A stretch of 64,000 bases of DNA from Balanoglossus misakiensis (lineage: Eukaryota; Animalia; Hemichordata), in assembly GCA_040954595.2 (NCBI GenBank), contig CM082577.2:15321903-15385902 (forward strand). Direction: 5' to 3'. Shown here piece by piece: positions 821-59,334 of this stretch. Below the pieces are notes generated by a model. That model searched no databases and was not told where the DNA came from. It saw only the letters and a program-made list of their open reading frames with translations. Made by a program: the position numbers and the translations under genes. Within the stretch, counting starts at the first letter, position 1. Each line of letters starts with the position of its first letter.

Positions 821-1753
821 TTGACCTGTGCACAACGGTTTGATATGGAATTGGCTACGCGAACTGCTTTCCTGAGACAACACAACATAGGTGTATTTCA
901 CGTGGATATACAGCACAAGTGCACGGGCCAGTGTACAATGTTGAATCCATACGGCGTGGGGATGCATTACATATGTACGACTTCATTGAAATATCACAAC
1001 TGTGACGCAGACAGCGATCGGGACTGCCTGTTGGTTTGCACCGACGAAGGTCAAATTTGTAAACTGACCGGCCATGTCATACAAGGTAGCCAGGCGGCAA
1101 ATGTTTATGTTGGCCTTGATAAACCAATGTATCCACACCCTTCCACCAGTTACGATCACAGTCGAATATCTGTGATACACAAAGACCAGAAAATGGAACT
1201 TTTATGTCACACGCTCGCTAGCACTATCTCAAAGTTGTTTCATGCAGACAATCGACGAAAATACAACCAGCTCACGAGGGTTCATTCTCGCTGCATCAAC
1301 ACAGCGTGCGCAAGGATAAAATGCGATCTATTAGAAGGACGTATGTCTTTTCCACAAGCATTACATCACCATATAAACAGTGCCGTGTACATTTTACATC
1401 AATTATTTTTCCCATACTCGCTGTTATCTACACTGGAAGCTTACGAGAGAAAAGTTATTTCAATTGTGTTGTCACACGTGCAAGGGAATCATGGTCGTGG
1501 CGGGGACATTTCCATCCTTCTGGGAAATCCAGAAGCGACAGTATTGTACATTACGAAATGCGTGCTCGAAGGTTTTGGATGCGCAGGCTCCAATATATTT
1601 GACCCGATTTTCCGGTACATGGGACCGATGCCTTTGGATCGTCATTTGAAAGAAGTGTTTGATATAAATCCGCATAAGTTAACAAAGTGTTCCAAAATAC
1701 TACAGGTAGTAATGACAAAATCATCGTGCATCCGAGCATTAAACAACATGTAG
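821..1753 (+). CDS. UL92/ORF31-like Cys-rich late transcription factor (likely start ATG 845)
   Basis: YICTTSLKYHNCDADSDRDCLLVCTDEGQICKLTGHV matches the herpes UL92 pattern YxC..HxCD..CxLVxTxEGxxCxxTGxV. Confidence 0.65.
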   Translation: MTCAQRFDMELATRTAFLRQHNIGVFHVDIQHKCTGQCTMLNPYGVGMHYICTTSLKYHNCDADSDRDCLLVCTDEGQICKLTGHVIQGSQAANVYVGLDKPMYPHPSTSYDHSRISVIHKDQKMELLCHTLASTISKLFHADNRRKYNQLTRVHSRCINTACARIKCDLLEGRMSFPQALHHHINSAVYILHQLFFPYSLLSTLEAYERKVISIVLSHVQGNHGRGGDISILLGNPEATVLYITKCVLEGFGCAGSNIFDPIFRYMGPMPLDRHLKEVFDINPHKLTKCSKILQVVMTKSSCIRALNNM

Positions 1754-2262
1754 TCAATGCCATACCCTCATATAGTCGCACTGAATTTCAAGGTTGTATT
1801 TCAGAAGACGCGCTTTACTAGCAACTACGCATGCGCAACTATTATTGTCATTGTGATTTTGCTGATCCTAGAAGTAGTCAATGCCATACCCTCATATAGT
1901 CGCACTGAATGTCAAGGTTGTATTGCAGAAGACGCGCTTTACTAGCAACTACGCATGCGCAACTATTATTGTCATTGTGATTTTGCTGATCCTAGAAGTA
2001 GTCAATGCCATACCCTCATATAGTCGCACTGAATGTCAAGGTTGTATTTCAGAAGACGCGCTTTACTAGCAACTACGCATGCGCAACTATTATTGAAACT
2101 GACGCCGTGATTTCGCTGAGCCTAGAATTAGTCAATGCCATACCCTCATATAGTCGCACTGAATGTCAAGGTTGTATTTCAGAAGACGCGCTTTACTATC
2201 AACTACGCATGCGCAACTATTATTGACGATGACGCCGTGATTTTGCTGAGCCTACCCTTATA
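1751..2262. repeat. Tandem ~124-130 bp repeat, about 4 copies, upstream of the first IAP-like gene
   Basis: tagtcaatgccataccctcatatagtcgcactgaat recurs at 1751, 1875, 1999 and 2129. Confidence 0.95.
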
Positions 2263-2304
2263 TAGCGATGTTACCAACTCGCAGCCCGTCATATTGCTAT
2301 CGCC

Positions 2305-3201
2305 ATGGCATCGTCGGGTGGTTCTCCATACCCTAGTGAAGTTTATAAATCAACGAGTTCCCGAGAGTTAAGTATCAGAGAAAGTTTATTGTTCACTGAC
2401 AGCAGCTGTGTGGCCCTGGCTGAATCAAATCTGTACGTGAACACTGCTCGGCGTGTCCGATGTATTTGCTGCAAATTCAAACCTCGATACTGTTTTTCAC
2501 AAGCGCAAATAGGAGACTTGGTCTTCGAGCATTATGTGTTTAACCAATCCTGCTACAGCCATAATGAACACCGATATCCGAGAAGTGTACATGACAAAAT
2601 GGACGGGTTGGGTCGCCTGTTGGCATTGCGTGAACTAAGGTTTACATTCGTTGAACTGATACGCCATTTGCGACAACGCAGGCCAGACGATAGGTTCGAG
2701 GACCTTGTGTTCATGGCTATATACTGCATATCAGTAAACATTGTCGGTCCTGACGTTCATGTAAAAAGCATTTCTCTTTCTGCTATGAAGAACTATGCAC
2801 GTCGCCATAACTATTATGAGCCAATGCGCAGATCCTTGTCTAACTACTTACACAAGGCCTTCGTGCAAGTCGTTGGTGATTTTCCTTGGGCAAACGTCCA
2901 CCAACTATGTAGGGAAGCCTTTTCAAATCAAACGTTTATATTAGAATATTCCAGAACACGGGTTTCGTGCGACTTATGCCGTTTCAGCTTAGAACAGGTC
3001 CCATTACCACCGGATATCAAGGCCAAGTACATTTGTTGTAAAATATGTCTCGACAACCCCATCACGTTAATTGGTCAGTGCGGTCACCCAATGTGTGAGT
3101 CGTGTTATAATAAAATGGCGTCAGTAAGTCCTGGTGGACAGTGTCCGTTTATTTTCTGTCAACAATCATTAGATTCCTTTATTGCTATAAGATTCCCGTA
3201 A
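2305..3201 (+). CDS. IAP-like protein: N-terminal BIR-like CCHC domain plus C-terminal C3HC4 RING
   Basis: LAESNLY..VRCICC..EHYVFNQSC (BIR-like); CKICLDNP..CGHPMCESC..CPFIFC (RING). Confidence 0.7.
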   Translation: MASSGGSPYPSEVYKSTSSRELSIRESLLFTDSSCVALAESNLYVNTARRVRCICCKFKPRYCFSQAQIGDLVFEHYVFNQSCYSHNEHRYPRSVHDKMDGLGRLLALRELRFTFVELIRHLRQRRPDDRFEDLVFMAIYCISVNIVGPDVHVKSISLSAMKNYARRHNYYEPMRRSLSNYLHKAFVQVVGDFPWANVHQLCREAFSNQTFILEYSRTRVSCDLCRFSLEQVPLPPDIKAKYICCKICLDNPITLIGQCGHPMCESCYNKMASVSPGGQCPFIFCQQSLDSFIAIRFP

Positions 3202-3227
3202 AGTGTTATGGGTGTTGGCGGGACCTG

Positions 3228-3415
3228 AGCGAGTCGCACTGAATTTCAAGGTTGTAATTCAGAAGACGCGCTTTACTAGCAAACACGCATGCGCAACCAT
3301 TATTGACAATGACGCCGTGATTTTGCTGAGCCTATAAACAATCGTAGCTGATCGTCAATGCCATACCCTTATATAGCGATGTTACCAACTCGCAGCCCGT
3401 CATATTGCTATCGCC
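3228..3415. repeat. Further copy of the 124-bp repeat family plus the promoter shared by the two IAP-like genes
   Basis: agtcgcactgaatttcaaggttg..cgcatgcgcaac..gtcaatgccatacccttatatagcg matches 1751-2304. Confidence 0.9.
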
Positions 3416-4333
3416 ATGGCATCGTCGGGTGGTTCTCCATACCCTAGTGAAGTTTATAAATCAACGAGTTCCCGAGAGTTAAGTCTCAGAGAAAGTTTAT
3501 TGTTCACTGACAGCAGCTGTGTGGCCCTGGCTGAATCAAATCTGTACGTGGACACTGCTGGGCGTGTCCGATGTATTTGCTGCAAATTCAAACCTCGAGA
3601 CTGTTTTTCACAAGCGCGAATAGGAGCCTTGGTCTTCGAGCATTATGTGTTTAACCAATCCTGCTACAGCCGTAATGAACACCGATATCCGAGAAGTGTA
3701 CATGACAAAATGGAACATATTGGTTACATGTTGAAATTAGGGCGAGAGCGTGGACTAAGGTTTAAATTCATTAAACTGTTACGCCACTGCAGACAACTCA
3801 GGCCATCCTGTCCATTCCAGGAAATTGTGATTATGGCTATATACTGCATCTCAGTGCACATTGTCGGGCCTGCCGTTCGTGTAAATCACATTTCTCTTCC
3901 TGCTATGAAGAACTATGCACGTCGCCATATAGATGTTGGCAAAATGCACGGACCCTTGGTTGACTACTTACACAAGGCCTTCGTGCAAGTCGCTGGTTAT
4001 GATCCTTGGACAAACCCCCACGAACTATGTAGGGAAGCATTTAAAAATCAAAGGTTTTACTTTTGTGACGGAGGCTGTGCTCGGTGCGATGTATGCAATT
4101 TCATGTTAGAACATGTCGTACCACCAGCTGATATAGATGACAATTACATTTGTAAAATATGTTACCACAAACCCGTCACATTAGTTTCTAATTGCGGTCA
4201 CCCTATTTGTGATGGTTGTTATACTAGGGTGAGGTTTTCAGACATTCCAAATCTGTGTCCGTTCTGTCGACAACCATTGCACTCCTTTATAACTATAAAA
4301 TTTATGTGTTGTGTCGGTGTTTGCGGGACCTGA
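3416..4333 (+). CDS. IAP-like BIR-RING protein, tandem paralogue of 2305-3201
   Basis: First ~100 aa are nearly identical to the paralogue; RING CKICYHKP..CGHPICDGC..CPFC. Confidence 0.7.
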   Translation: MASSGGSPYPSEVYKSTSSRELSLRESLLFTDSSCVALAESNLYVDTAGRVRCICCKFKPRDCFSQARIGALVFEHYVFNQSCYSRNEHRYPRSVHDKMEHIGYMLKLGRERGLRFKFIKLLRHCRQLRPSCPFQEIVIMAIYCISVHIVGPAVRVNHISLPAMKNYARRHIDVGKMHGPLVDYLHKAFVQVAGYDPWTNPHELCREAFKNQRFYFCDGGCARCDVCNFMLEHVVPPADIDDNYICKICYHKPVTLVSNCGHPICDGCYTRVRFSDIPNLCPFCRQPLHSFITIKFMCCVGVCGT

Positions 4334-4334
4334 G

Positions 4335-4441
4335 CGAGTCGCACTGAATTTCAAGGTTGTATTCCAGAATACACGATTTACTAGCAATTAAGCCTACGCA
4401 ACTATTCTTTATTATGACGCTGTGATTTTGCTGAGTCTAGA
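4335..4441. repeat. Degenerate copy of the 124-bp repeat family
   Basis: gagtcgcactgaatttcaaggttgtatt..gtgattttgctgagtctag. Confidence 0.85.
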
Positions 4442-4934
4442 AAGAACTGATGTTGACTTTTGAGTAACTCATTTAGAACAGACCGAGTAGGGCGCATTCG
4501 AAACTCGTCTTGAAAATACAATGTGAATTCATGCAGTGCTTATGTCGGTGAATAAAATAATCGTTGGTTGTATTCACAAAGTGTGTTCGGCTGTCTTTCT
4601 TCCCTTTACCCCGATGAGTGACCACTTGAATAAATGACTGTACGAAAAAATGTATTGAGTACGAATAGTCATCGAATCCAGAGTTTTTCGGTACCAGTTC
4701 GTGTATATAATTTCCTGTCAAACGAAGGTATTCGAGACCCATGCAACTGGGGGCGCTACATAATCGGGGTTTTGCCTACGGTGGTCGGGCTCCGGCCAGC
4801 GCCATCACCCTGTAATGGTCATTCCGCTCGCTTGCGTTCTGACTGTAAAGTAATGACCAGCTTTCAACTCCTACAGTTAGTCTGAATTCATTTACTGTAT
4901 ACATTGCTCTTATTTATGTGTGTGGCAATAAATT

Positions 4935-7019
4935 ATGAGTGCCATGGATGAAAATGTACAGCTCGTGGTTGGGAGAAACGTGTACAGTTTCTTTACCCAC
5001 AAAGTTTGCCAGTCTATTCCTTACATAGAAAGTATGATGCAGTTTGAGCGCATGCGGTCGAGTTATAACGGCGTCTTGCAACTCAGCAATTCAAACATTC
5101 CAGACACACACTGGCACTTATTTCTCGGTTTTTTAAATTTAGGTAGAATACCACCTCTTGTTCGATACACAGATGTTAATGGCGGCGCAGCTACTTTCGC
5201 CATAGAAGAACACAATCTGGCGGAAGTTGCAGTAACAGCGGACTTCTTGCTCATGACGTCATTTACTCGGGCCCTCTCCCAGTTAATATTAGAAAGGTCC
5301 ACGCTCTTTTCTGGTAATTGCGTTCAGTCTATGCACAATCTATTTATATTTTTCGATCAGATCAGTCGAAAAATACCGCACGAAAACGACTTGATAGACA
5401 CTGCGGCTGCATTGTGTGCTCAAGTCACGGCAAATTTTCGGGGCGTTTCTGTCGGAAGGTTATGGTGTTTAGACACGTTAAGGCGATTTGTATTACGCAG
5501 GAATAGATTTATGGGGACCGAGAGAGACATATACACCACCGTGTATTGTTGGTTTGAACATTACAGACGTGAATTTGAGGCGAATAGCAACCCGTTATCG
5601 TTTATCGAAATATTGTTGGCCATATGGCCCAACACTCCCATCCTCCAGTCGGAGATATATGACTTGGCATTTGGTATTATTATGAGATATCTTGGGCAAG
5701 AGAACGGCTTAACGAAATACATAGATAACATATCTCATGAATTGTCTGATCGGGAACTCTTTGGTATAAACATACAACCATCCGACATTCACCATCGTAT
5801 CGTGGAAGCACATGCAAAAACTATTCTTGATTCCATTAAAGCTACTTGGCGAAAAAACTACAAGCAACCTATAGATTGTACATATTCATATTTATTGATG
5901 GATCGAGATAAACTTCAATCTTACAATATGTACACAAATAACTGGTCGGATCTGCCCAATACGGATATGTTCTACAATAGTATATTTCCACCACCATCAT
6001 CAAAATGTAGGCTATATGACGTCATGGTTGTCAGTGAAAGAAATAGTGTGTTTTGTCTGTTTAGACAAGATAACTTTTTGGTTCTTATTGTGAACCATAT
6101 TGGGGATAACGATAGCCTTGTTTTGGGAGAATGTGGCTGGAAAGTTGTGTTCAATATAGCATTACAGCTAGGGGGGCTACCGTTGAATCCGCGTGGGTTT
6201 TACCAAATGTGCAACTTCGAGGAGTTTCTCATCATGAAAGATTCTACATCTCCGCATATAACGTGTGTTCACAGAGAAGGGCCGTGGAAAACGTTCAGGG
6301 ATTGCAATGTACTGTTTTCAACGACGTACATCAGTGTCAAACCTGAATGGGAAATAAGAGACAAAACAATATGTCCAGTGTATTCAGGCGAGAACCATCA
6401 TAAGTTGTTTTGCGACATCTATGTTGTTGGCCCGGCATCCGAGTTATCCTTGTGCGTGTTAACGGTGGAGATCGATAAAATATGCTGCAAAACACACATA
6501 GAATACGACCTTGTTGAGCAGAGGGTGCTTTTTGGTATGAAGTTAGAACGTTCAATAGCCACCCCCGACCTTGAAGAAGGGAATTACATGCCTTCACTGT
6601 TCTTCTTATCAGCAATAGGGCTGGTGTGTTTGGGTAGGTTGAATATATCACACGACCGACAAGGACAGTATATGTTGATAAACATTCAGTGTTACAAGTA
6701 CATCAAACACGACCAGTGTTGGGAACGCATTGATTTGTCGCATGGGTCATTCCAAACAGATGCATCTTGGGAAAGTGTTAGTCTGGAGTATAGTACACAG
6801 TCGCACGCGCTACCTCTCAAGGGTCATCTTGACGGGCCTCACACGTTGGTATTGTATGACGGGGACCGTCAAGAGAACCACGTAAAGCATTTATTTTCTC
6901 GAATGAACGTCGTAATAGATTTGTCAATACAAAATATAGAGGTTCGACCGCTATGTTCAGGTAGGATTACTTGTCCGTGTTCTCAGCATGGTAACCGAGA
7001 CGGCAAAATATCTATGTAA
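4935..7019 (+). CDS. BTB-BACK-Kelch-like protein (Cul3 adaptor-like)
   Basis: BTB-like VQLVVG..THKV..SIPYIESM..ADFLLM; BACK-like ERDIYTTVYCWFEH; kelch-like SYNMYTNNWSDLP. Confidence 0.65.
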   Translation: MSAMDENVQLVVGRNVYSFFTHKVCQSIPYIESMMQFERMRSSYNGVLQLSNSNIPDTHWHLFLGFLNLGRIPPLVRYTDVNGGAATFAIEEHNLAEVAVTADFLLMTSFTRALSQLILERSTLFSGNCVQSMHNLFIFFDQISRKIPHENDLIDTAAALCAQVTANFRGVSVGRLWCLDTLRRFVLRRNRFMGTERDIYTTVYCWFEHYRREFEANSNPLSFIEILLAIWPNTPILQSEIYDLAFGIIMRYLGQENGLTKYIDNISHELSDRELFGINIQPSDIHHRIVEAHAKTILDSIKATWRKNYKQPIDCTYSYLLMDRDKLQSYNMYTNNWSDLPNTDMFYNSIFPPPSSKCRLYDVMVVSERNSVFCLFRQDNFLVLIVNHIGDNDSLVLGECGWKVVFNIALQLGGLPLNPRGFYQMCNFEEFLIMKDSTSPHITCVHREGPWKTFRDCNVLFSTTYISVKPEWEIRDKTICPVYSGENHHKLFCDIYVVGPASELSLCVLTVEIDKICCKTHIEYDLVEQRVLFGMKLERSIATPDLEEGNYMPSLFFLSAIGLVCLGRLNISHDRQGQYMLINIQCYKYIKHDQCWERIDLSHGSFQTDASWESVSLEYSTQSHALPLKGHLDGPHTLVLYDGDRQENHVKHLFSRMNVVIDLSIQNIEVRPLCSGRITCPCSQHGNRDGKISM

Positions 7020-7070
7020 CGCGGTGTAAGAAGAAAAGGTTGACTGGTTCTCCACACTGTATATAATACA

Positions 7071-8801
7071 GTGTGTTCAAGTCAGACGTTCAGTCGTTTT
7101 CTATCGCTGAACCAAGAACTGTGTACGATGGCTAATATACTGAAATACTCGAGTCGACTTGCGTTTGATCCCATAACCCCGGAATTGTTAAACATATTCG
7201 CGGACAATGATATTAAATGTCCAAACGTCTGTTCCAGAGAGTATAACTCCAGAAGTTTATCGTATCTCCTGTGTAAGACGGGATCTCAAGCGTTCCCAAA
7301 TTACGATATAAGTAAATTCAAACTTATCGATTCCAAAGCTATCCTGAGTGGCGACGTGGACATCTTTTTATCTGAACTGGTTCACACGCCATTCTTTGCT
7401 AGCATTGCTATGCGTATAATAGCAGAGGTTACCGGAAGAGCCTATAACAAATACGATCCAATGGTGAAAGACGACAGACAGTGGGTAATGAAAGCTATAG
7501 AAGAAACTGATTGCAACCAACCAAATGACATTTTCAACTTGACTGGACTACGTCTCGAAAAGAAGAAACTCAAAAAAGACAAGGCTGACACTGGTTCGAA
7601 CAAGTTTTCACATTATGATGTTGTTTTCCAATTTGGTGACAGCGCAAAAGTAGTAACACTACCAGGAGATTGTGATGATAACATTGTAGATTGTTTTGAT
7701 GCGACTGACAAAATTGTGGCGCGTCCTGCCTTACAGACGACAGAATTGAAGACGGGCACACAGCTAGTCGGATATTCCAACGTTTCGTTTAAGGGTAACT
7801 TTTGTATCACAGACGAAGAATTGGATACTGTCAAAGGGCAGATGAAATCACGTGGTGGTTCCTTGATAGGTGCAAACCATCTACGACAGATTGATAGTGC
7901 CCGCTATATAATAGGGCTGTCATGTCGTTTTGGCGAATATGGAAACATGAAATTTCTGAAACTTCAGTTAGTCTATCTGATCGTTCAGTGTAGATATTTA
8001 TATCTCTGCATGATTGAAGACAAAGACAACCCTCTCTATTCAGAAGTCAGACTGAGAGATGATGTTGACTTGAACACTTTCAGTTCGTTGTTTACGCAAG
8101 AACTACGGAAACTTTTTTACGGAGAAAACGACAACATAGGCCGTAAACTCAAATTGGCTGATGATATGCCCACATCAATATACAACAAACACCTTGCTTC
8201 AGTCACCATGAGATCTTTTTATGAAGTCGGTCTCGAACAAAGAAACGGGAATCTGTTGGCGAAAGAAGCTATAAACACCAGTGCCGACGTTCAAAGTCAG
8301 GTTGCAGCGTTTTCCGATGTATTACGGCGTTCTAAGAGAGAATATAAACCTCTGCATATAGTCTACCACCCAGCTGTTGTACCAATGAACCGCGATAAAA
8401 GTAGCATAAGGGTTCCGCAGAATGTGAGGATTTACATAAGTGACTCGAAACGCGAGTCCAATGACCCGCCAGATGCCATGAATGCCGCCCTCAAAATAAT
8501 CTGTTACGGCAGTAAAGAGATAAAAAAAAACGTGGTGATGTCGTCGTTGTTAGACTCTGTCCAAGTTGTGCCATGGAAAGCTGTCTTTGAGAAAGATACT
8601 TCTTTGCAACAATCTACCGAATTAGACCAATCTAGTCTTGCACTCGCTGTCCAGAATATCGTTTGCCATTTGAATAGCAGTGAAGAAGAAGCGTGTGAAA
8701 TGCTAGCCATCCCATGGGCCGATTATCTGGCGTCTAAAAACGAACAGTTGGCTATCTGTGCCGAGCCCGACGCCAAACGCATGCGAATTACAAGTAATTA
8801 G
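7071..8801 (+). CDS. Hypothetical protein, C-terminal NLS-like PDAKRMR (likely start ATG 7128)
   Basis: 576-codon ORF, TATATAA at ~7061, AATAAA downstream; no family recognised. Confidence 0.75.
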   Translation: MCSSQTFSRFLSLNQELCTMANILKYSSRLAFDPITPELLNIFADNDIKCPNVCSREYNSRSLSYLLCKTGSQAFPNYDISKFKLIDSKAILSGDVDIFLSELVHTPFFASIAMRIIAEVTGRAYNKYDPMVKDDRQWVMKAIEETDCNQPNDIFNLTGLRLEKKKLKKDKADTGSNKFSHYDVVFQFGDSAKVVTLPGDCDDNIVDCFDATDKIVARPALQTTELKTGTQLVGYSNVSFKGNFCITDEELDTVKGQMKSRGGSLIGANHLRQIDSARYIIGLSCRFGEYGNMKFLKLQLVYLIVQCRYLYLCMIEDKDNPLYSEVRLRDDVDLNTFSSLFTQELRKLFYGENDNIGRKLKLADDMPTSIYNKHLASVTMRSFYEVGLEQRNGNLLAKEAINTSADVQSQVAAFSDVLRRSKREYKPLHIVYHPAVVPMNRDKSSIRVPQNVRIYISDSKRESNDPPDAMNAALKIICYGSKEIKKNVVMSSLLDSVQVVPWKAVFEKDTSLQQSTELDQSSLALAVQNIVCHLNSSEEEACEMLAIPWADYLASKNEQLAICAEPDAKRMRITSN

Positions 8802-12274: not shown

Positions 12275-14173
12275 ATGGGTCGATATGGTTTGGCTCATAT
12301 TGTAACCGATGTCAAAAGACACGCTTCTGAAATTAGGGACCCTGTGTACGGCGTGCTTGCAGCGGACGTCAACAGGTGGCGATTAACAAAACTCCCTGTC
12401 CGATGGGAGCATGTACACGGGAGAGGAGAAGGTAGTGAGGACATTGGAAAGTCTTCTATACTATCGAGTAAGGGTATTGGTTACGTGAAAAACTGGTGGC
12501 TCGATTTTTCGTATCCAGGATCATATTTTGCAGTGGCCGTTTTATTGGAATTGGATGCCAAAGACTATATACAGAGTCCATTCTCTAGCGTGTTTAATAG
12601 CGTGTCATTGAGTCAAGATGCGAAGAATCGAGGGAAGTGCTTCGACATATCTCTAGTCAGAACTGGAGCAAGACATGGTACGCGTGCCTTGTTCTTTGAT
12701 GACCTCAATCAAGTTCGTTTGGCAAGTCGCAAATATTTTGGTTTAGACTCAACTTTCACGGATGTCGTAAGTAAATACAAAGCGATCCGCGGGAGATATA
12801 ACGCATACAGATCGAACGGTGGCTGCAGACTAAAGTATAAACGTGCAACATCCAACCAACATAATGTCAATATGGACGGTAGGGCGGACGGCAAAGCGTT
12901 GAATCATGAGGAACTGGAAATGACTAACCAGTTTACAAGTAAGCAAGATGCAGATCACGATACGCATGACACCCGAAAGGAAGGCGAAACACGACTGATA
13001 CACATGTTAGGACAAAATAATGAAAAGGCCACTGTCCATGAGAGGACAGACTCGCCACGCACTCCTGCACCTAACACTGAAAATTCGCTGGCTAAGGAGT
13101 TGGCGTTAGTCAGCAAATTGGCACAGAATCTTCCCAAAGAGGACGCTGTACAGTTGATGGAACTGTTTGAGAATCGGGACGAGAAAATAAATTCCATGGA
13201 CAATATGGCGTTGACCATGTCGTTACAAGTTCAGAAAATCTTGCAACTAGTCAGTAACATAATGGACGAACAAAACACACCGGAATCCAGGAAACGCAGG
13301 GATGATCTTATGGAACTCCGTCAAAAACTCACCAGAGAGCCCATGGATCAAGGTCATATAAACGCCTCATTTTCGAAACTTGGTGAATCATACCAAGACA
13401 TATCGAAGGAAGCAAACAAGGTTCCCAGAGCATCTATGGACGAGGCAGTCAGTAATAAACTGATCGACTACTATAAACGTGTTACTAACGTGCTCAAGAA
13501 GCAATCAAACCCGGATACAATAAGTGAATCCAATATGTCCTCTTTGAGTAAAGATCAACAGGAACGCATGGCTAGAATTAAACAACATATGTCAGAAAGC
13601 CCAGACATATACCAATACATACAGTCACTAGAGGCGGCAGTGGATAGTAGTCTACTCCAAGGTATACGTGAAAAATCCCCGCGACCACACGGTAGTCTGT
13701 CGCGTCATGCTGCGCAACAAAATGCTACCTATAGAGACCGCGACGATGGGTATTCGCCACATTATCACACGCAAAAAATCACGGGACCTAGTCAGGAGCC
13801 CTACCAACGGCGTCAACCAACGCATGAGTGTATGTGTGAGGATTGTCAGCCCATACGTCACACCAAATCTCCCCACCTGCAGAACCGACGCCAAGGATCT
13901 CCGCAAGACCCCATAAAGACCCATCAATCTAAGCACAATTCTGAAGCTATGCAACAGCGCAAAGATGCGACCCAGTGTGATCGACAGCAAGACTGTACTG
14001 CAAAATCGTGTCGCCAACCGGACTCCGAGGATAAAATCGACGCCAGTTTCAGTGGTCATTCGGAGCACCAACAGACATTCTGGAAATTGAGGAAGCCAAT
14101 AGTATACGATAATGATTTTCCGGAAGGATTTTGTGACGACGGACCACCAATAGTCAAGAGAATCAAACATTAG
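12275..14173 (+). CDS. Capsid maturation protease (assemblin/HK97 prohead type) fused to a scaffold-like region
   Basis: LPVRWEH (His), SVSLSQ (Ser) and FDISLVRTGARHGT (oxyanion-loop-like) in the first ~150 aa; coiled-coil/low-complexity C-terminus; upstream of the MCP. Confidence 0.7.
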   Translation: MGRYGLAHIVTDVKRHASEIRDPVYGVLAADVNRWRLTKLPVRWEHVHGRGEGSEDIGKSSILSSKGIGYVKNWWLDFSYPGSYFAVAVLLELDAKDYIQSPFSSVFNSVSLSQDAKNRGKCFDISLVRTGARHGTRALFFDDLNQVRLASRKYFGLDSTFTDVVSKYKAIRGRYNAYRSNGGCRLKYKRATSNQHNVNMDGRADGKALNHEELEMTNQFTSKQDADHDTHDTRKEGETRLIHMLGQNNEKATVHERTDSPRTPAPNTENSLAKELALVSKLAQNLPKEDAVQLMELFENRDEKINSMDNMALTMSLQVQKILQLVSNIMDEQNTPESRKRRDDLMELRQKLTREPMDQGHINASFSKLGESYQDISKEANKVPRASMDEAVSNKLIDYYKRVTNVLKKQSNPDTISESNMSSLSKDQQERMARIKQHMSESPDIYQYIQSLEAAVDSSLLQGIREKSPRPHGSLSRHAAQQNATYRDRDDGYSPHYHTQKITGPSQEPYQRRQPTHECMCEDCQPIRHTKSPHLQNRRQGSPQDPIKTHQSKHNSEAMQQRKDATQCDRQQDCTAKSCRQPDSEDKIDASFSGHSEHQQTFWKLRKPIVYDNDFPEGFCDDGPPIVKRIKH

Positions 14174-14207
14174 CGTGAGAGAATAATTTACAACACAGGA
14201 AGAAAGA

Positions 14208-15128
14208 ATGTCCATCAGAAACGCGCAAGTAAAAGCCCCTCCAGTTGAAGGCCCAGTGATTGCGCTTGAAGTAGACCGCACGTTCGTTTCACAAAACTTG
14301 GACGGTGCGAAGTTATCGGTCACTCAGGATGTGCTCTACCCGAGAGACGACAAGGTCACAATTGTACCGGGACAGGTACTGTTGGGACACAGGGATTTTG
14401 CTTCTAGAAAGTGGGGAGTTGTTCCTTCACCAGCTGGGCTCATGGCAAAGTCATTTGATATACATACTGGAGATATCGAAAAAAGCAGGCAGATGTGGGA
14501 GTTAGACCCACAGGCGTATAAGGTACTGGGTATAGCTTCGACCGAATCCACCGATTGGGAAAAGGGTCAGCTAATGTCGATTGTGTCAAAGTCACCCAGT
14601 ACGGGTTTTTTAAACACAGGAGGCAATTGGATAAGAGACGGACAACTTGTCTGTGTGCGTCTCCCAACCCACGAAGAAGCCAATCAACACTTGCATCGGT
14701 ATGGTTCGATCAAATTTGCCACCTATCCCCGCGACGATAACGACGTTCATTCAAATATATACGAGTTTATGGACTATCTAAGAATGGAAAAGGATATTGC
14801 TGTAGCAACAGGTCACCACAACAAAAGAGAATCGCTGAAAGCGCTCACCGAGATACTATCGCGTTCTGGGGAATTCATTTCGAGTCATATAGTGCCAGAG
14901 CCAAGATCCCGAGCACAATTCGACAACTGGAAGCGTACGGGATATATTTTCAACACTCCATTAACCCTATTCACTGATGAAGCGCACAGGATATCTTTGC
15001 AACATTTTCTCAACAATGTGGTCAAACTTGCCAACACAATTAGATCAAAGAACGACCTGATAATCTTAGGACTCGCCAGGCAAGATATACACCCTTACGA
15101 ATACGGGAGCATAGAACTCTACGTTTAA
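14208..15128 (+). CDS. Probable capsid triplex subunit
   Basis: 306 aa, between protease and MCP; beta-rich pattern VLGIA..NTGGNWIRDGQLV..P..LGLA..IEL recalls herpes/mirus triplex. Judged by eye only. Confidence 0.5.
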   Translation: MSIRNAQVKAPPVEGPVIALEVDRTFVSQNLDGAKLSVTQDVLYPRDDKVTIVPGQVLLGHRDFASRKWGVVPSPAGLMAKSFDIHTGDIEKSRQMWELDPQAYKVLGIASTESTDWEKGQLMSIVSKSPSTGFLNTGGNWIRDGQLVCVRLPTHEEANQHLHRYGSIKFATYPRDDNDVHSNIYEFMDYLRMEKDIAVATGHHNKRESLKALTEILSRSGEFISSHIVPEPRSRAQFDNWKRTGYIFNTPLTLFTDEAHRISLQHFLNNVVKLANTIRSKNDLIILGLARQDIHPYEYGSIELYV

Positions 15129-15797
15129 TATCTGTACGCGGAACACGTGTAATGGCATAAGACAATTTACCGTGGATTGTAATTTTTATCTTTATATATA
15201 CATATTAAATAAATGTTACAAACAAAGTAATATAAGTAGTGAAACTTGCATGTCTACACACGAATAAATACACATAGACGATCATATGGGTTAAAATGAA
15301 TTTATTTTTAACATGTTGTAAGAGAGTGTGCTGTATGTGATAAACAATCACCTACACAGTTCTCATCTACATAACAATAAAACTCCTTCTGTGATTGGTT
15401 CACCGCCGACCAGTCTCAAGTCCAGTTGGGGTCGTTAAAATTGCGGCCTTTATGACTTCAATGACTAATGAATGAAGTCAATATGACCGCCGTTTCACCC
15501 CCCCCCCTCATATGTTACGGGGGAAATCATTACAACTGTACCATGGAATCCTCCTGTACATTACTTGTACCTTTCACCATGGACTATGCGTTGTGCTTCT
15601 TCATCATCTTCGTAGATGTACCGAATATAACAGTCCATGGTGTCAGACTTGTAGCCACGAATAATGATTACTATCCTTTAGATGGGATTCAGCTATGCGT
15701 CTTCTCTGTTACAGCATGTTTCGCCAAAAGTGGTTCGTCAGAGATATTATATTAATAATGTGTTAGAATAGCGATACGTGTATAAAGGTATTTCAAA

Positions 15798-18700
15798 ATG
15801 CTGAATCCGTTCAGACGGGGTCAACCCAACATGAGCAGGCCTTTGATGACGTCTGATCTACTAAATTTTGACAATTTTTTTGCAGACGACGGGTCAAACC
15901 CGCCCTCTGGTCAGGGTCGATTCGGGGGAACATTCTCATCCAATCCAAACTATATCGGACATCGAAACCAGGGTCACACTGCCACAGACACCGATTGGGT
16001 TGCCCCGAAAGATGTCTTATTGAGTCAAAGGATATTATACGACTCGATCTCGCCTGATGAAGGCGTTGTTAAAGTGGGTGGTGATAGGTTGGCTTGGTTT
16101 TGTCCCATCGCTATTTTCAATGGAAGACCCAATTTTGCAATACAGGAAATCATCGCCCCGGCTTCAGTTGTAGATAAATGTACATCCGCGTCTACTCTGC
16201 CAACACTGGGCGTTGAAAAGCAGTCGAGACAGTATACCATGGATATGATGGGCGTTGCCATCAGTTTAGCTCCAGAGCTTATTCAAAGAGGGACTGTTAA
16301 CCAGATAAGGAATGCGTACAAACTCAAGGTCAAACAGGTGGTCGACAGTATCGCAATGACACTACAGGCAGTAGTATACAGTAATGTATTCGGTGGTCCC
16401 ACACTCGAATACATGGAGTTTCGCAGGATGGGCAACGAAAGAGATGTTTCTAGAGCTAACCTATTTTATGGTACATATCAGAAAAGAATCGACAATTTTC
16501 TACTATGGAACCTGGGGCGAACAAACAAGAAAGCTGTGTTAATTGACTTGGATAACTGTTTGAATTACAGTTCGAACAACGACGGTGATGCCGACACAAT
16601 AATATGTCACCCTGTCGTCGCAGGTGTCTTGAGGGAAACTGTCGCGCCTAATCTAGGCACGCAAGAAACTCGAGAAACCTATTTTGTGAATACGTCTGAT
16701 AATCACATTGTGTATAATCACCATCTTCAACCAGACCCAAACCTCTCCCACCAAGTTCATGCTCCAAATTTAAGAACAATAGTTAATGCAAAAGTTAAGT
16801 ACATTATTCCCTGTCCGGATGTACGAATAAACAATGTCAAGTCGAATCTCAGTGAACTCGAGGCCAACTTCAAATCGTTTAACGTTATAGGATATTGTCC
16901 ATTACTGCAACAAATGGGTAGTCTACTGGACTTCAAACAAACCACATCTGTGGATTGGAATTCCATATACGTTACCGACTTTGAGAAACGATACGATTCG
17001 AGGGTTACCTTGGACGAGGTGATGGAACAGGGTGGTTATTTTGTACCAGAAACATACAACGCGAGTTCTTATAACAATCTATTGAGAAGTGCAGACTTTA
17101 TTGAATTGACGACCATAACACCAGCCGAGTATTATCGATCATGCACAATGCCTTTCACTGGAAAGGAGAAATCCTGCTTGTTAGATCCTAGTCGAAAAGT
17201 GTATTATGACCCGGACAGACAAACATTTCTACCCGCGTTCACTTATGGACACAGCAACGTGAGCACCTGTCCCGTCGACAGGGGTGACATTGTCGCCGGT
17301 ATGACGTTCATGTCCAGGACAATGGTTGGCCTCGGAGAGCATTGCGACGAGGAATTGTTATGCAACTATGTAAGAGACTGTCTGTCGCTGGAATGGTCTC
17401 AGGAGGATTTCGACACCCTTATGCTGTTTGATCGCACACCGTTTCACGAGGCAATGGGCGATGTGGCAGAAGTTGGCAATACCAGTGATGGGAATGGAAG
17501 TGGAGAAGGTTCAGGTAGCCAGGGGACATTGGCCCAAAGGGTTATCAGGGACGTCACTTCTCATAGTGGCGCCACACATTTTACCAATTACGATCAATTG
17601 CTAATCGTCCGTCATATTTGTCAGCAACGCAGATGCATCGATCGAGAAAGAGAGGAAGGTGGTCGTGCAGGTGCTACCGCTATGAACGCATTAGACTGCG
17701 CAATTGTCAACATTACTATGATTATAGAATGGGTAGACTTACTCTATGACAAATATAAAACAGTAACCAAATCCAGGCCAGATACTACACACAGTTGGTT
17801 GTTCACGCCATTGGGTCATGAGACTCTACAAAAAGTATTTCACGATGACCGCCTAGATGAAGCGGATGAGAGAGATTACACGCATATGTTACGCAACAAG
17901 GCTGCTCTGTACCACAATGTATTTCTGAGAGCATTTTCGCCGGTTGTATATGTTGCGGGAAATTCTTCTTTAGACGAAGCTATAGAGGCCGGCATCGTGA
18001 ACGTTGTGGGGCTGGGTGACATTACACTGAACGAGGAGGTTTATCATTACAATTGTAACTTTAGTACATATTCAGCCAGGCGGACATTCAATACTATAGC
18101 TGATTCGTCATTCATACGCCCCAAGCAAAGATTTGTTATCTCCGATTTGAGTCCATTGCACTCATACAACAATGACTCTCCTGTCGATGCGGAACACTTT
18201 CTGAACCATAACTATTCCTACAGGTTGTCATGGATCTGCAGTTCGTCATACAGTCTCATGATCAAGTGTTTTACCATGATTTTCATTAGCATGTTACAAA
18301 ACCCAACCACTACTAGAGCGTTAGCAAAAGAAGGGATATATTTAAACACGGCGTTTCTTTTGTTCAGAAATGTGGTACAGCGGACATGTAGCATCGCCAT
18401 GGCGCGATCTGGTAGAGAGAACAGGTTCTTGTTTTGTGGCAATAGCACTACAAATAGTTACCATAGTAATGCCACCAGTTATGTGACGAATTGTCGTTTC
18501 GAGACAAATATGGTGGACTTCGACCCGATCAATAACACCAGGGTACAGTTGCACGTGGGAGGTCTGGGTTATAACAGGGGGATGGGTTCAAAAATTAGGG
18601 ACCCGTTCACGGAGGGGACGTCCGATGGTAGGGGCGACTTTGTTGTTGTACCTATGTGTCCGATCGTAGATGTTGGGCTCTGGAATCACATTCAACCTAT

Positions 18701-19265
18701 GAACGGGCGAGTTACGTTCGAAGATGGTAATTCAAACAAAAAGGCCACGAGAATAGACACTGTCCAAGGTATTTACACCAATAATCCGTGGTCAACGGCT
18801 GGACTGTCAGAGGCTCAGATTATACATGGTAACATGCGACATCCCTTATGGGTTCACAATAGTAACAAGCACGGGACGTTCAAGTGTTTCTTACAGGCCA
18901 AGACACCGTCACCACAATACCAAGTTGGTATTGATGAATTTTATAGGCCCATAGATTCCAATGGTCTACAGAGAGAATCAAACATAGCTGTACAGGGTAG
19001 GCAGTACCACAACAACATTGACTGTCCATACGCTTTCAAGACTCTTAACAGAGGGTTTTATGGAATGGACGAAAATAGTAGCAATCGCTTCCAAGACGCC
19101 CTCAACGTCTCCACCGTTCGTGATGACGAAGGTTTACATCTGATGGATCCAATCACGATTCAACCGTCTGTCAAGAGAACGGACAAGTACTACGCAGAGA
19201 CTGGAATCCGTAAGAAATTCAAGCCAGACGACGCGTCGCGTCAACACAGACTAATACCTATTTAG
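15798..19265 (+). CDS. Major capsid protein, HK97-fold floor with large insertion (herpes/mirus type)
   Basis: 1155 aa, clustered with protease and triplex. N-terminal E-loop/spine-helix-like segment (QYTMDMMGVAISL..YKLKVKQVVDSIAMTLQAVVY) and DTIICHP. Confidence 0.7.
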   Translation: MLNPFRRGQPNMSRPLMTSDLLNFDNFFADDGSNPPSGQGRFGGTFSSNPNYIGHRNQGHTATDTDWVAPKDVLLSQRILYDSISPDEGVVKVGGDRLAWFCPIAIFNGRPNFAIQEIIAPASVVDKCTSASTLPTLGVEKQSRQYTMDMMGVAISLAPELIQRGTVNQIRNAYKLKVKQVVDSIAMTLQAVVYSNVFGGPTLEYMEFRRMGNERDVSRANLFYGTYQKRIDNFLLWNLGRTNKKAVLIDLDNCLNYSSNNDGDADTIICHPVVAGVLRETVAPNLGTQETRETYFVNTSDNHIVYNHHLQPDPNLSHQVHAPNLRTIVNAKVKYIIPCPDVRINNVKSNLSELEANFKSFNVIGYCPLLQQMGSLLDFKQTTSVDWNSIYVTDFEKRYDSRVTLDEVMEQGGYFVPETYNASSYNNLLRSADFIELTTITPAEYYRSCTMPFTGKEKSCLLDPSRKVYYDPDRQTFLPAFTYGHSNVSTCPVDRGDIVAGMTFMSRTMVGLGEHCDEELLCNYVRDCLSLEWSQEDFDTLMLFDRTPFHEAMGDVAEVGNTSDGNGSGEGSGSQGTLAQRVIRDVTSHSGATHFTNYDQLLIVRHICQQRRCIDREREEGGRAGATAMNALDCAIVNITMIIEWVDLLYDKYKTVTKSRPDTTHSWLFTPLGHETLQKVFHDDRLDEADERDYTHMLRNKAALYHNVFLRAFSPVVYVAGNSSLDEAIEAGIVNVVGLGDITLNEEVYHYNCNFSTYSARRTFNTIADSSFIRPKQRFVISDLSPLHSYNNDSPVDAEHFLNHNYSYRLSWICSSSYSLMIKCFTMIFISMLQNPTTTRALAKEGIYLNTAFLLFRNVVQRTCSIAMARSGRENRFLFCGNSTTNSYHSNATSYVTNCRFETNMVDFDPINNTRVQLHVGGLGYNRGMGSKIRDPFTEGTSDGRGDFVVVPMCPIVDVGLWNHIQPMNGRVTFEDGNSNKKATRIDTVQGIYTNNPWSTAGLSEAQIIHGNMRHPLWVHNSNKHGTFKCFLQAKTPSPQYQVGIDEFYRPIDSNGLQRESNIAVQGRQYHNNIDCPYAFKTLNRGFYGMDENSSNRFQDALNVSTVRDDEGLHLMDPITIQPSVKRTDKYYAETGIRKKFKPDDASRQHRLIPI

Positions 19266-19555
19266 ATCGAAGGGATAACTGTCAAATCAGTTTCGTTTAA
19301 TCCCACCCGCATAGATAGATAAAAGTTTTGTTAAGGCCAGAGAGAAAAAAAAATCTTGTTCATCGGATTTTTTGGACGATGGTCCAGGAGCGGCGAGCGA
19401 ATATTTTTTTTTTTTTTTTTTTTTAGGCTCGTGCTCTTTCATTTTGTTACCTGTATGTGTAGGTCTACCTGTGCTGTACTATATGTAATGTATGACTTAT
19501 ACGGCCGAAATAAAAAGTTGAACCACCAGAAGTGACAACCACAATTTTTTCCGAG

Positions 19556-19617
19556 CATGGTGTATTATTTGCTGACCTTATATTGGCAAGCTTCACAAAT
19601 GGTGACCCCGACGTGAT
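19556..19617 (+). mobile_element. LTR-end relic (..CTTCACA) followed by a perfect tRNA-Trp primer-binding site
   Basis: TGGTGACCCCGACGTGAT at 19600-19617 is the complement of the eukaryotic tRNA-Trp 3' end plus CCA, 2 nt after a CA terminus. Confidence 0.8.
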
Positions 19618-20412
19618 GAATTCTCAAGGCATGAGTGTATTGTATTTACAATCGTGACGTTACTGGTTACCGACTCACCCTCTCCAGACAAGTGACGCAC
19701 ACGATCACGGCCAGTATGTATGGCAGGAAATCACACGCATTAATTCCCGAATAAAATTTGGGATAACGATTATTTAAAACGGAATGCTTGTTTTGAGAAA
19801 GCTGCCCGTCTCGCGCATAAAAGTTCAACATATTTGAAATATCTTAAATAAAAGTGAATAAGCTTTCAATATATATATAATGACAACAAAATGGTTTAAC
19901 ACGTAACAAAAATATAAATTCTGTACAAAAATTCATGAATTCTTGTCAATGAATCTCAGATATAATAAATAATGTCTATACAGCGTGATTTTGATTGTCT
20001 TTTCCATGTAACGTAAATACCACAACGTAGTTCTTCTCCAGGCGATGGGAAAATATAGTCTCTTGCCATGGACGAGCGAAATTTAATCTATCAGGGAAAT
20101 ATATCTGCTCACAAATGCGCGCCATATTGGGTGGCAAAGCGCGTCGTCGTCATCAAAAGTGGAAATCAACACTAGAACGTGAACATCGCTTTTGATGTCC
20201 GTTTCTCGAGTCACAGTTTCAAGTCTGAATACTCCAACACGACATATTAAAGCTCTGTCTCTTCCACCTCCAGTTTTGATTGTATAAACATCGTCGCGTC
20301 CGATGGCGCGATCATTTGGTGCAGCGTTCGGTCGGGTGCGAAATTTTCCCTTCAAGACGGTGTGATTTTTTTCCTCATACTAATTCTGTGTAACTACGAG
20401 TCTTGGCTGTCA

Positions 20413-20898
20413 TTATGAATACGATTTCAGTTCGGCAAAAACTTCTGAAAAATACGTACTCTCCTTGTTTATCCGTAACATGTTGGCACTACAGTCATTT
20501 ATAATTTTCAGGCTTCTGTCCCCGAATCTGTCTCTGTCGTCTTCAACTAGGAACGGTTTTAGCGGATAACTGATCTCGTTGCCCACGTAACTATAGGATA
20601 AGTACAGACATGTGAGCACGACGGCTTGTAGCTCAGACTCGGAGGTGATTTTGTCGTCGACAAAGTCCCGACATAACATGTACACGAAGACAAGGTTTGC
20701 CGGGGTGATGAAGGCAATGTCCTGCCACCCTTGCAAGAGCAGGGACCTGTCCACTGATCGCAGCCACATTATGGCATCGTTGCCTTCGAAGTCCCGCAAG
20801 CAGGAGCATCGCCGACTGAGGAAATTTCCCAGACACTTCAGCAGTTCTCCGGTGGACGCTTGGATGGTTTTCTTGGTGTTCGGCGTTTTCACCGCCAT
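20413..20898 (-). CDS. CDK5R1: CDK5 activator p35 homologue reduced to the activation domain (p25-like)
   Basis: [58 protein letters not shown]. Intronless; in-frame stop just upstream of accATGg. Confidence 0.95.
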
Positions 20899-20937
20899 GG
20901 TGTATTATTTGCTGACCCTATATTGGCAAGCTTCACA
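20896..20937 (+). repeat. Second copy of the 42-bp LTR-like repeat (1 mismatch), overlapping the p35 start codon
   Basis: catggtgtattatttgctgacc(t/c)tatattggcaagcttcaca at 19556 and 20896. Confidence 0.9.
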
Positions 20938-21317
20938 CGATGAACAATTTATTTTTCTTCCTGGCCTAATTGTCTCTGTACTGTCCGTGTTGCCAGCCAA
21001 TCCACTCATTTATTCCGCTGCTTTGATATAATTACATGCCTATGCAAATAGGGAAAGATATACAAATCTACATGCCTTTTTTTTATACACCACATAATAC
21101 GTAAGTGCATGTATTCCAACTGTAATACATTGGATAGACCGTGTGCGTGCGTGTCACTATCCTGCGTGTAAAATTGGCGAGTATAATTTTTAGAGACAAC
21201 TCGGCTTTTGTGGCTCATAATTCTAATTATATCAAAGTACAACGCCAACAGTCCTATACATCTGGCGTTGACATAACCTATTAGCGTGTGCAGAGAACAG
21301 TATTGTTTAGTTGAACC

Positions 21318-22288: not shown

Positions 22289-22867
22289 ATGACAGAACAA
22301 ACGTCAATGTCGTCTCAATTAGACCCCGAAATGTGTATTTGTCGCATATGCCAAGAAGGTGAATCGTGTGCTGAAGGCGGCATGCTTTTGATTGCACCTT
22401 GTTTATGCAAAGGTAGTCTGAAGTTTGTCCACCGTAGGTGCATCCAAACCTGGATAAGAAGCGCTCGTATCAACCGATGTGAAATTTGTAATGCACGCTT
22501 CAAAATCATGGTTGAGACTAGACCAATATCAGAATGGACATTGCCGAAGATGACCAGAACGATATGGATAAATATTGCACTTGTGTTGTCGTGTACTGTG
22601 TGTATATTAGGCATATCATTACACATGCACCTTTTGGTGGAATCCCTATTTCTAAAGATGGATGCACTGAATACATTTTTCGTGGTGGCTTGCGTGTTGC
22701 TGGCACTTATGGCGCTGACTGCATTTGTCCTCCTAGAGACTTTTAGGTGCGTGGACGTGTATGTGTGGTTAAGAGAGAACAACAGAGAGATAGGTGTTAA
22801 GGACTATTGCCCATCTTCTCAACAAATACATGGTGGTGATGAAGACATACGCACGAATACGGTGTAG
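22289..22867 (+). CDS. MARCH/K3/K5-type RING-CH E3 ligase with two TM helices
   Basis: CRIC..LIAPCLCKGSLKFVHRRCIQTWI..CEIC followed by two hydrophobic segments. Confidence 0.9.
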   Translation: MTEQTSMSSQLDPEMCICRICQEGESCAEGGMLLIAPCLCKGSLKFVHRRCIQTWIRSARINRCEICNARFKIMVETRPISEWTLPKMTRTIWINIALVLSCTVCILGISLHMHLLVESLFLKMDALNTFFVVACVLLALMALTAFVLLETFRCVDVYVWLRENNREIGVKDYCPSSQQIHGGDEDIRTNTV

Positions 22868-59316: not shown

Positions 59317-59334
59317 ATATATATATATATATAT
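59317..59334. repeat. (AT)n microsatellite at the virus/array junction
   Basis: atatatatatatatatat. Confidence 0.95.

Follow-up and report, generated by a model that had tools for sequence, protein, structure and literature searches.

Results

A Viral Region with an Inserted Host Gene Fragment

The DNA analysed here is a stretch of 64,000 nucleotides (the window), which is gene-dense and viral in content according to a scan of 34 ORFs. The profile search assigned a UL92-family protein, a deoxynucleoside kinase, a family-B polymerase, the small chain of ribonucleotide reductase (RNR) and several RING proteins. Terminase and portal were not detected among the 34 ORFs scanned, and Rfam and ARAGORN scans yielded nothing relevant. 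The ORFs for capsid, polymerase, RNR and kinase are all uninterrupted. The features of the insert and its viral flank are collected in Table 1.

Table 1. Positions of the features at the insertion site within the window.
Feature	Position	Strand	Evidence and remarks
Probable herpes-type major capsid protein, 1155 aa	15798..19265	+	Foldseek on low-confidence model; viral flank
Left target-site duplication TAA	19332..19334	+	Host copies: loose ends before 19332/19334
Left arm of Harbinger-like MITE	19335..19431	+	TIR 19335-19365, T-run 19404-19424; right limit probable
5' LTR of host LTR retrotransposon, about 166 nt	19432..19597	+	TG...CA, AATAAA at 19509; 3' end from contigs, 5' start probable
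42-nt repeat copy 1, last 42 nt of 5' LTR	19556..19597	+	Repeat and host contigs
18-nt primer-binding site (PBS) after 2-nt spacer	19600..19617	+	Last 8 nt (19610-19617) common to host p35
Captured host p35 (CDK5 activator), 3' coding part and about 800 nt 3' untranslated	19610..20895	-	Contig X3 record 19; antisense to LTR
161-aa ORF: LTR-derived Met and equivalent of host residues 142-301	20413..20898	-	p25-like cyclin-fold activator domain
42-nt repeat copy 2, LTR 3' end only	20896..20937	+	Gives ACC-ATG on minus strand; junction contig X2 record 13
Right TIR of MITE, adjoining LTR end	20938..20966	+	Inverted repeat, contig depth
Right target-site duplication TAA	20967..20969	+	

Sequence-level searches with the 1155-aa ORF gave no match to a herpes-type major capsid protein (MCP). 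The structural model of this ORF was of low confidence (mean pLDDT 40.8). A Foldseek comparison with BFVD returned two matches under E 0.001, both of them herpesvirus MCPs (E 5.3e-06 and 9.1e-04); in the PDB the top ranks were herpes capsids, but none was under E 0.001. On the basis of this low-confidence capsid model the virus appears to be herpes-like. For the 1155-aa ORF 14 related proteins were found, and for the polymerase region three matches. The viral_contigs collection contained no relatives of the 1155-aa capsid ORF or the p35 ORF, hence no empty site from a relative. In the literature we did not find a herpes-like virus of a hemichordate described, and the available part of one preprint likewise does not mention hemichordates.

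Several further features of the viral region were observed. The 632-aa, 306-aa and 1155-aa ORFs follow each other at 12275-19265, upstream of the insert; that the first two are the protease-scaffold and triplex genes is a guess. Two RING-finger genes (2305-3201 and 3416-4333, in region 1729-4421) are tandemly duplicated together with a repeat of 124-130 nt that carries their upstream TATA-like region. The ORF at 22289-22867 encodes a MARCH-type RING-CH protein (PF12906) with two hydrophobic segments; in this it resembles E3 ligases of viruses by which surface proteins are down-regulated. A DUF4419 gene at 46966-48462 is present as two ORFs (344 and 136 aa) that jointly cover the profile, and is either split by an intron or broken. 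At 59333-64000, 56 nt past the last ORF and behind a TA run, a 452-bp tandem array is present in 10.3 copies of 99% identity, which may be host satellite DNA that marks the place of integration, or else a repeat of the virus itself.

The 42-nt Repeats Derive from a Host LTR with a Primer-Binding Site

The two direct repeats of 42 nt reported by the first-pass annotation are 41/42 identical and exceed what shuffling produced: the longest exact repeat in the 4-kb region was 22 nt, compared to a maximum of 16 in 200 shuffles. Copy 1 ends with CACA, followed by AA and by an 18-mer, which presumably pairs with tRNA-Trp and was the sole match in the window at up to three mismatches (0.03 expected). 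The spacer of 2 nt lies within the 0-4 nt found between the CA of an LTR and its PBS, in agreement with the canonical geometry described before. Copy 2 has no PBS. It stops precisely at CA, with no 2-nt spacer behind it, and the ATG of the 161-aa ORF on the minus strand is made up of its first three bases, again as described.

The same 18-mer followed CA and 2 nt at 9/9 viral-contig loci. A metagenome scan found, among the matches listed, CA located 0-4 nt upstream of the 18-mer in 80 of the 112 usable cases, and Gypsy-type or Bel/Pao domains in 11 of 12 downstream ORFs of at least 525 aa. Because of this CA spacing and these downstream domains, the 18-mer is a working PBS of LTR elements. The combined pattern of LTR end and PBS gave 0 matches in metagenome_contigs. 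Three metagenome loci (L054, L092, L113) contain tandem repeats of a PBS-like 18-mer. Many metagenome loci have the same few letters after the PBS, possibly an extended complementarity to the tRNA.

We compared the locus to contigs from three runs (X1, X2, X3) of one sample, in which the stretch is represented and which is possibly its own source. These are assembled contigs and not reads, and contigs drop rare variants; all results from this comparison rest on the matches listed. Multi-copy host contigs matched 19434-19597 at several times the viral depth. In X1 two contigs passed into unrelated sequence, the one directly after 19597 and the other after 19599, as would be expected of solo or 3' LTRs. 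Another X1 contig ran through the PBS and departed exactly behind 19617 for at least 255 other letters, which is the pattern of a 5' LTR followed by the interior of its element. Contigs ending at 19617 were present in X1 and X2, but the loose end in X2 resembles a GATC-GATC ligation product and was not counted as a second parent; the parent internal sequence is therefore represented by the one contig of X1. Since host contigs end their match at the 3' end of the repeat and continue into unrelated flanks, the 42-mer is the genuine 3' terminus of an LTR that has many copies and a parent family in the host. This comparison within the same sample answers the question, raised with the first description of the repeats, whether the 42-mer matches a host LTR end. 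It also excludes the local duplication of viral sequence that had been offered as an alternative.

The two 42-mers had been taken as the LTRs themselves. They do represent a real LTR end, but we rejected LTRs of 42 nt, as the host match reaches at least to 19434 and the first LTR is longer. Its length is probably about 166 nt because the TG at 19432 is the only one available between the T-run and 19434; the region of the 5' start (19366-19432) was skipped as a repeat in contig matching. A polypurine tract before copy 2 was absent (longest purine run 3 in 60 nt), as was a target duplication of 4-6 bp around the LTR part, where only CG (2 nt) is shared at the probable start; both absences had already been noted. 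With about 166 nt on one side and 42 nt on the other there are no two complete LTRs, and the chimera is not an intact LTR or TRIM element. Between 19433 and 19463 the depth in X1 was about 3,400-3,800 and thus several-fold above the remainder of the LTR, and behind 19464 one contig diverged; a related, more abundant repeat has this part in common with the LTR.

A Segment of Host p35 Replaces the Interior of the LTR Element

By its sequence matches, the p35 of this locus is the CDK5 activator and not the baculovirus caspase inhibitor. The match of the host p35 contig of 2725 nt from run X3 was confined to 19610-20895, where it had 25 other letters and 44 gap letters (about 98%), and there were loose ends on both sides, of which the left one was repeated in X2. 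The host letters behind 20895 stay in frame and correspond to the residues preceding position 142 in Ptychodera p35. We concluded that the gene was cut at this point and that the Met of the ORF is foreign and LTR-derived, which confirmed the earlier proposal that the LTR donated the start codon. On the other side, the host contig runs 715 nt further before 19610. The captured copy has neither these letters nor a poly(A), so the capture did not start at the poly(A) tail.

The host p35 match and the PBS overlap over 8 nt, precisely those with which the PBS ends (19610-19617), with a chance probability at a given place of 1.2e-5. Read-through into the tRNA past the PBS was rejected, since the host p35 match takes over there. 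The second junction (20895/20896) showed no exact microhomology, and an imperfect match of 7/9 just before it. The insert extends from the PBS to the last 42 nt of the LTR, and the parent internal sequence seen in X1 is missing, i.e., it was replaced and not interrupted. The host gene piece is flanked on both sides by host LTR retrotransposon sequence, and by the alignments the p35 segment, in antisense orientation, took the place of all that lay between the PBS and the final 42 nt of the LTR.

The ORF had been described as intronless host cDNA. It is indeed collinear, but this is not informative on the template: host contigs of a DNA run were also collinear over 20452-20895, with no joint among the matches listed, and the host p35 gene thus seems to be intronless over this compared span. 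The lack of an intron in the viral copy therefore cannot tell cDNA from genomic template.

The best matches of the p35 ORF were from Ptychodera flava (96%), Glandiceps (92%) and Saccoglossus (86%), followed by 74%, and a tree of 17 hand-picked named homologues placed it among the acorn worms (97/93). Based on these matches and the tree, the virus host is likely an enteropneust (acorn worm).

Contig depth is a qualitative measure here and gives no copy number; in X1 it was 142-165 for window-type p35 contigs, compared to 135-152 for the viral flanks, and a separate host allele had 59.6, and the viral depth is thus only about 2.5x that of the host allele. Window-type p35 was present at viral-flank depth in two runs. 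Run X3 is small and without viral-flank cover, and its sole p35 contig is host-type; it looks like a transcript assembly, though it is not on record as RNA. No RNA run was among those listed as containing the stretch. Junction-containing contigs were present at both LTR-p35 joints and both TIR-virus joints. Among the matches listed, contigs of X1-X3 bridged a junction with 30 letters at best, against a criterion of 31 letters. Joints that skip the insert were not found among the listed contig matches of X1-X3, which does not prove fixation, and neither an empty viral site, nor an empty MITE, nor a loaded host copy was seen among them. At four positions (19464, 20662, 22387 and 23278) every X1 contig differs from the window, which there either is a slightly different copy or has errors.

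The Chimera Lies within a TIR Element Flanked by TAA

The account of the first-pass annotation did not include a TIR element (19335-20966) that encloses the entire LTR-p35 chimera and has TAA on both sides. Its terminal inverted repeats match in 26/31 columns. The contig depth of this MITE was in the range of thousands to tens of thousands, compared to about 135-165 in the viral flanks; at 20951 it was 4,930 in X1 and 40,381 in X2, and a loose end was present behind 20967. Host copies stop matching at 19332/19334 and at 20967, i.e., many host copies have the same ends. The host flanks of the element were mostly TAA, while two of the flanks among those listed differ. A loose end in X3 behind 19377 showed that the T-run follows MITE sequence in host copies. 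The left MITE arm folds no better than its shuffles (z -1.5). TAA/TTA is the target of PIF/Harbinger elements, according to the parts of two reports that were available (PMC10288884, PMC4735498). Because TAA is duplicated exactly, we concluded that transposition of the TIR element made the hole in the virus.

A second TIR element of 806 nt is located at 41217-42022, between the gene for the RNR small chain and the next ORF. Its arms match at 34/36 positions, it has TTA on both sides and subterminal repeats of 33-35 nt, and it looks free of cargo. By these features it is likely another Harbinger-like host MITE, so that elements targeting TWA would have entered the viral genome twice. The scan for TWA and TIRs at 11/14 gave 0-4 chance hits per shuffle and is not itself a test. 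A further TIR candidate at 4880-7323 was dropped as chance.

The 161-aa ORF Encodes a p25-Like Domain

The 161-aa ORF matched the CDK5 activator profile PF03261 (E 8e-87, 292 bits, profile positions 181-333 of 336) and contains the complete cyclin-fold domain. It covers the 147-residue chain of 1h4l and matches the p25 chains in PDB 1ung/1h4l; a myristoylated N-terminus is absent. Its product is predicted to be a soluble CDK5-binding domain of p25 type that is not myristoylated. Frame and stop have been kept, and the GC3 of the ORF is 0.62, compared to 0.39-0.54 in the other 34 ORFs listed.

Among the 52 positions with at least 97% invariance, 51 were kept. Position 126 differs, and the residue in the window was seen in 0/240 homologues, among which position 126 is 99.6% and position 105 is 95% invariant. 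Nine coding differences to the host contig are listed, four synonymous and five nonsynonymous. Ptychodera as outgroup places the changes of codons 105, 122 and 126 on the virus side and that of codon 131 on the host side, and codon 79 is peculiar to the window; two conserved sites (105 and 126) among so small a number of changes do not reach significance. We rejected an ADAR signature, since A-to-G in gene sense was a minority among the differences between window and host. Our literature search returned no paper on how the residue equivalent to position 126 contributes to the structure.

The conserved core begins 8-9 residues after the cut. Of the 456 combinations of return point and frame, 144 would be expected to offer an open in-frame ATG, 27 to have one within five codons and 2 to have one directly abutting; an argument for selection from the ATG position is post hoc. 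The repeat contains a TATA-like word only 24 nt before the ATG. A TATA box 24 nt ahead of a start is too close for a transcript that includes this start. For this reason, donation of a promoter by the LTR, considered possible in the earlier description, is unlikely. A canonical TATA is present at 21087-21081 on the minus strand, and an upstream ORF of 34 codons ends 7 nt before the ATG. We consider it more probable that the 161-aa ORF is a passenger (young, weakly selected or decaying), and rather doubtful that it works as a viral CDK5 activator.

Discussion

Proposed Route of Capture

The locus contains a host p35 fragment that is joined in antisense orientation to the PBS on one side and to the final 42 nt of an LTR on the other, within a TIR element flanked by TAA in a herpes-like virus, and we favor, with some reservation, an origin from plus-strand strong-stop DNA that was mis-paired on p35 mRNA. 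Plus-strand strong-stop DNA consists of the LTR and a copy of the 18-nt primer end, where synthesis is stopped by m1A58, and PBS pairing guides the transfer of this DNA, a step that can go wrong, as described in the available parts of two reports (PMC8599865, PMC12657518). In a first step such DNA (LTR, 2 nt and the 18-nt PBS copy) would have annealed by its last 8 nt to the 3' UTR of p35 and not to the minus-strand PBS. Reverse transcriptase (RT) would then have copied about 1.29 kb of the p35 mRNA towards the mRNA 5' end, and would have jumped back onto minus-strand DNA 42 nt before the LTR end, which would have put codon 142 in frame with an ATG on the antisense strand of the LTR. The chimera is seen inside the Harbinger-like MITE, whose transposition left the TAA duplication; the MITE may have arrived loaded, like a Pack-TIR, or empty to be filled later, and the chances of the two orders appear about even.

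Pairing of the strong-stop 3' end with mRNA leads to an insert that is antisense and begins at the PBS end, and both were seen. From the RT cycle one would expect a sense insert if ordinary minus-strand switching had taken place. The second jump onto minus-strand DNA leads to a 42-nt copy that ends exactly at CA, as an integrase-processed end would. Among the findings against the strong-stop model, the LTR chimera has no target duplication of 4-6 bp, although the model predicts integrase-ready ends, and the second junction is without exact microhomology. We found no paper on plus-strand transfer onto cellular mRNA and thus no direct precedent for the first step.

Alternative Explanations

The virus may be chromosomally integrated, so that the insert is due to host transposon traffic and the ORF is an unexpressed passenger that was never in a virion. 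This reading overlaps with the strong-stop route, and we give it nearly an even chance. Integration is suggested by a viral depth in X1 of only about 2.5x that of a host allele, although depth gives no copy number, and further by the 452-bp array after the last ORF, the second MITE and the DUF4419 gene in two pieces. The open ORFs for capsid, polymerase, RNR and kinase and the kept frame and stop of the p35 ORF argue against it. For a passenger speak the three amino acid changes on the virus side against four synonymous changes, which include sites of 99.6% and 95% conservation, and the upstream ORF in front of the ATG, while the position of the cut just ahead of the core, and of an in-frame ATG within a distance expected at few return points, speaks against it.

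Template switching at the DNA level is an unlikely but serviceable explanation of the junctions. Here a broken end of the LTR (or MITE) would have invaded genomic p35 by the 8-nt microhomology, copied 1.29 kb and returned, without any RT. Microhomology with gap filling is the common route for Pack-TIRs in animals, according to the accessible part of one study (PMC8277862), the host p35 gene that seems intronless here would suit as a DNA template, and a target duplication of integrase type is absent. However, the switch coincides with the 8 nt that end the PBS, a single defined site in an element of several kb, and the antisense orientation is what an mRNA template would force at that stage. 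The copied span also lies wholly inside the single 2725-nt host contig with its transcript-like layout.

The strong-stop route can be extended to a relay of two transposons, in which transfer onto mRNA was followed by carriage in a Harbinger MITE into a hemichordate herpesvirus, and in which the virus expresses the first viral CDK5 activator, an encoded p25 with an altered kinase-binding surface. Taken as a whole, this chain is quite improbable.

The first-pass annotation had proposed conventional transduction by an LTR or TRIM element straight into the virus, with the 42-mers as both LTRs. An LTR parent in the host does exist, with canonical LTR end, spacer and PBS, and this part of the proposal stands. 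The rest does not: the LTRs differ in length (about 166 and 42 nt), polypurine tract and LTR-type target duplication are lacking, the only target duplication at the viral site belongs to the TIR element, and minus-strand switching onto mRNA would have produced a sense insert. We therefore regard this route as very improbable.

An assembly chimera of viral and host repeat sequence is hardly to be expected either. The junctions cross high-copy repeats, the data stem from a single sample, and there is no spanning piece among the matches listed, but p35 of the window differs by about 2% from the host allele and has viral-flank depth in two runs, junction contigs exist at all LTR-p35 and TIR-virus joints, and TAA is duplicated exactly.

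LINE-type retroposition, with the T-run as poly(A) tail or the 42-mers as long target duplication of a viral promoter, is the least credible explanation: the ORF is truncated at the 5' side, the T-run lies downstream of the gene in gene sense and capture by LINE-1 into a poxvirus is documented (PMC9578709, available part), but we rejected the 42-mer as a duplicated viral promoter because it is a host LTR with host copies and the T-run as a tail because MITE sequence precedes it in host copies (behind 19377 in X3), the mRNA's own 3' end is missing while the host contig runs 715 nt beyond the junction, and the ends of such an insert show no matching duplication.

Comparison with Known Systems

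In its formation the insert resembles LTR-mediated retrocopies in animals, in its wrapping Pack-TIRs, and in its delivery the host elements that enter baculovirus, as far as these are described in the available parts of the reports (PMC5131818, PMC8277862, PMC4735498). Like the retrocopies in the accessible part of Tan et al. 2016 (PMC5131818), it is a partial mRNA copy that replaces the interior of an LTR element, with microsimilarity at a junction and without poly(A) or a target duplication of L1 type. In contrast to them, the PBS end was the place of the switch, the polypurine tract is missing along with most of the 3' LTR, an ATG on the antisense strand of the LTR provides the start codon, and the location is in a virus; the insert here has antisense orientation relative to the LTR, and for theirs the accessible part states no orientation. 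Such retrocopies are recognized by both LTR termini and a target duplication of 4-6 bp, while here the 3' terminus is exact, the 5' terminus is a probable one, and the duplication is CG at most. Aberrant second-strand transfer in HIV-1 proviruses also comprises errors of PBS-directed plus-strand transfer with junctions at or near the PBS; in the cases described in the available part (PMC12657518) the transfer goes to another site of the viral minus strand or into the tRNA, whereas here the acceptor is cellular gene sequence.

With Pack-TIRs (Tan et al. 2021, PMC8277862) and PIF/Harbinger MITEs (PMC10288884), as presented in the parts at hand, the enclosing element shares the non-autonomous TIR structure, the 3-bp TWA duplication and the foreign sequence inside. 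It differs in its cargo, an LTR-gene chimera, and in its viral landing site, and is called Harbinger-like for its TIR and TAA. The influx of host transposable elements into a baculovirus (Gilbert et al. 2016, PMC4735498) and LINE-1 capture by vaccinia (PMC9578709) likewise show host mobile elements that bring host DNA into a large DNA virus. In the available parts of these reports the cases are transient insertions or LINE-type captures, in contrast to an open-frame coding fragment with LTR hallmarks in a TIR wrapper.

Host-gene acquisition by large DNA viruses is mostly inferred long after the footprints have vanished, and the LINE-1 route was shown experimentally in a poxvirus (PMC9578709, in the part available). 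Here every junction survives, and the three donors, i.e., gene, LTR family and MITE family, are visible in the same sample, which makes the route readable base by base and testable. The insert is likely a fresh record of how a mis-jumping RT copied a host gene that then reached a virus. Its structure suggests that a route based on an LTR led into a herpes-like virus, and it suggests one specific error of RT, the transfer of the PBS end onto mRNA. Our literature search, which had most subscription journals outside its range, found no title or abstract on LTR-PBS capture into a DNA virus, on plus-strand transfer onto mRNA or on a viral CDK5 activator. The transfer error predicts a class of antisense retrocopies starting at the PBS, which can be searched for in animal genomes. 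In addition, the locus documents a herpes-like virus from a hemichordate.

Should the product be expressed and active, it would amount to a p25 ready for use, a deregulated CDK5 activator. Like p25, the calpain product of p35, it keeps the cyclin-fold domain and lacks the N-terminal myristoylation signal, and loss of the myristoylated N-terminus of p35 lengthens the half-life and moves CDK5 off membranes, according to the available part of one report (PMC8609871). In contrast to p25, the viral ORF was made by truncation of the gene, is about 40 residues shorter at the N-terminus and has one near-invariant residue changed. The viral cyclins of gammaherpesviruses derive from D-type cyclins and not from p35.
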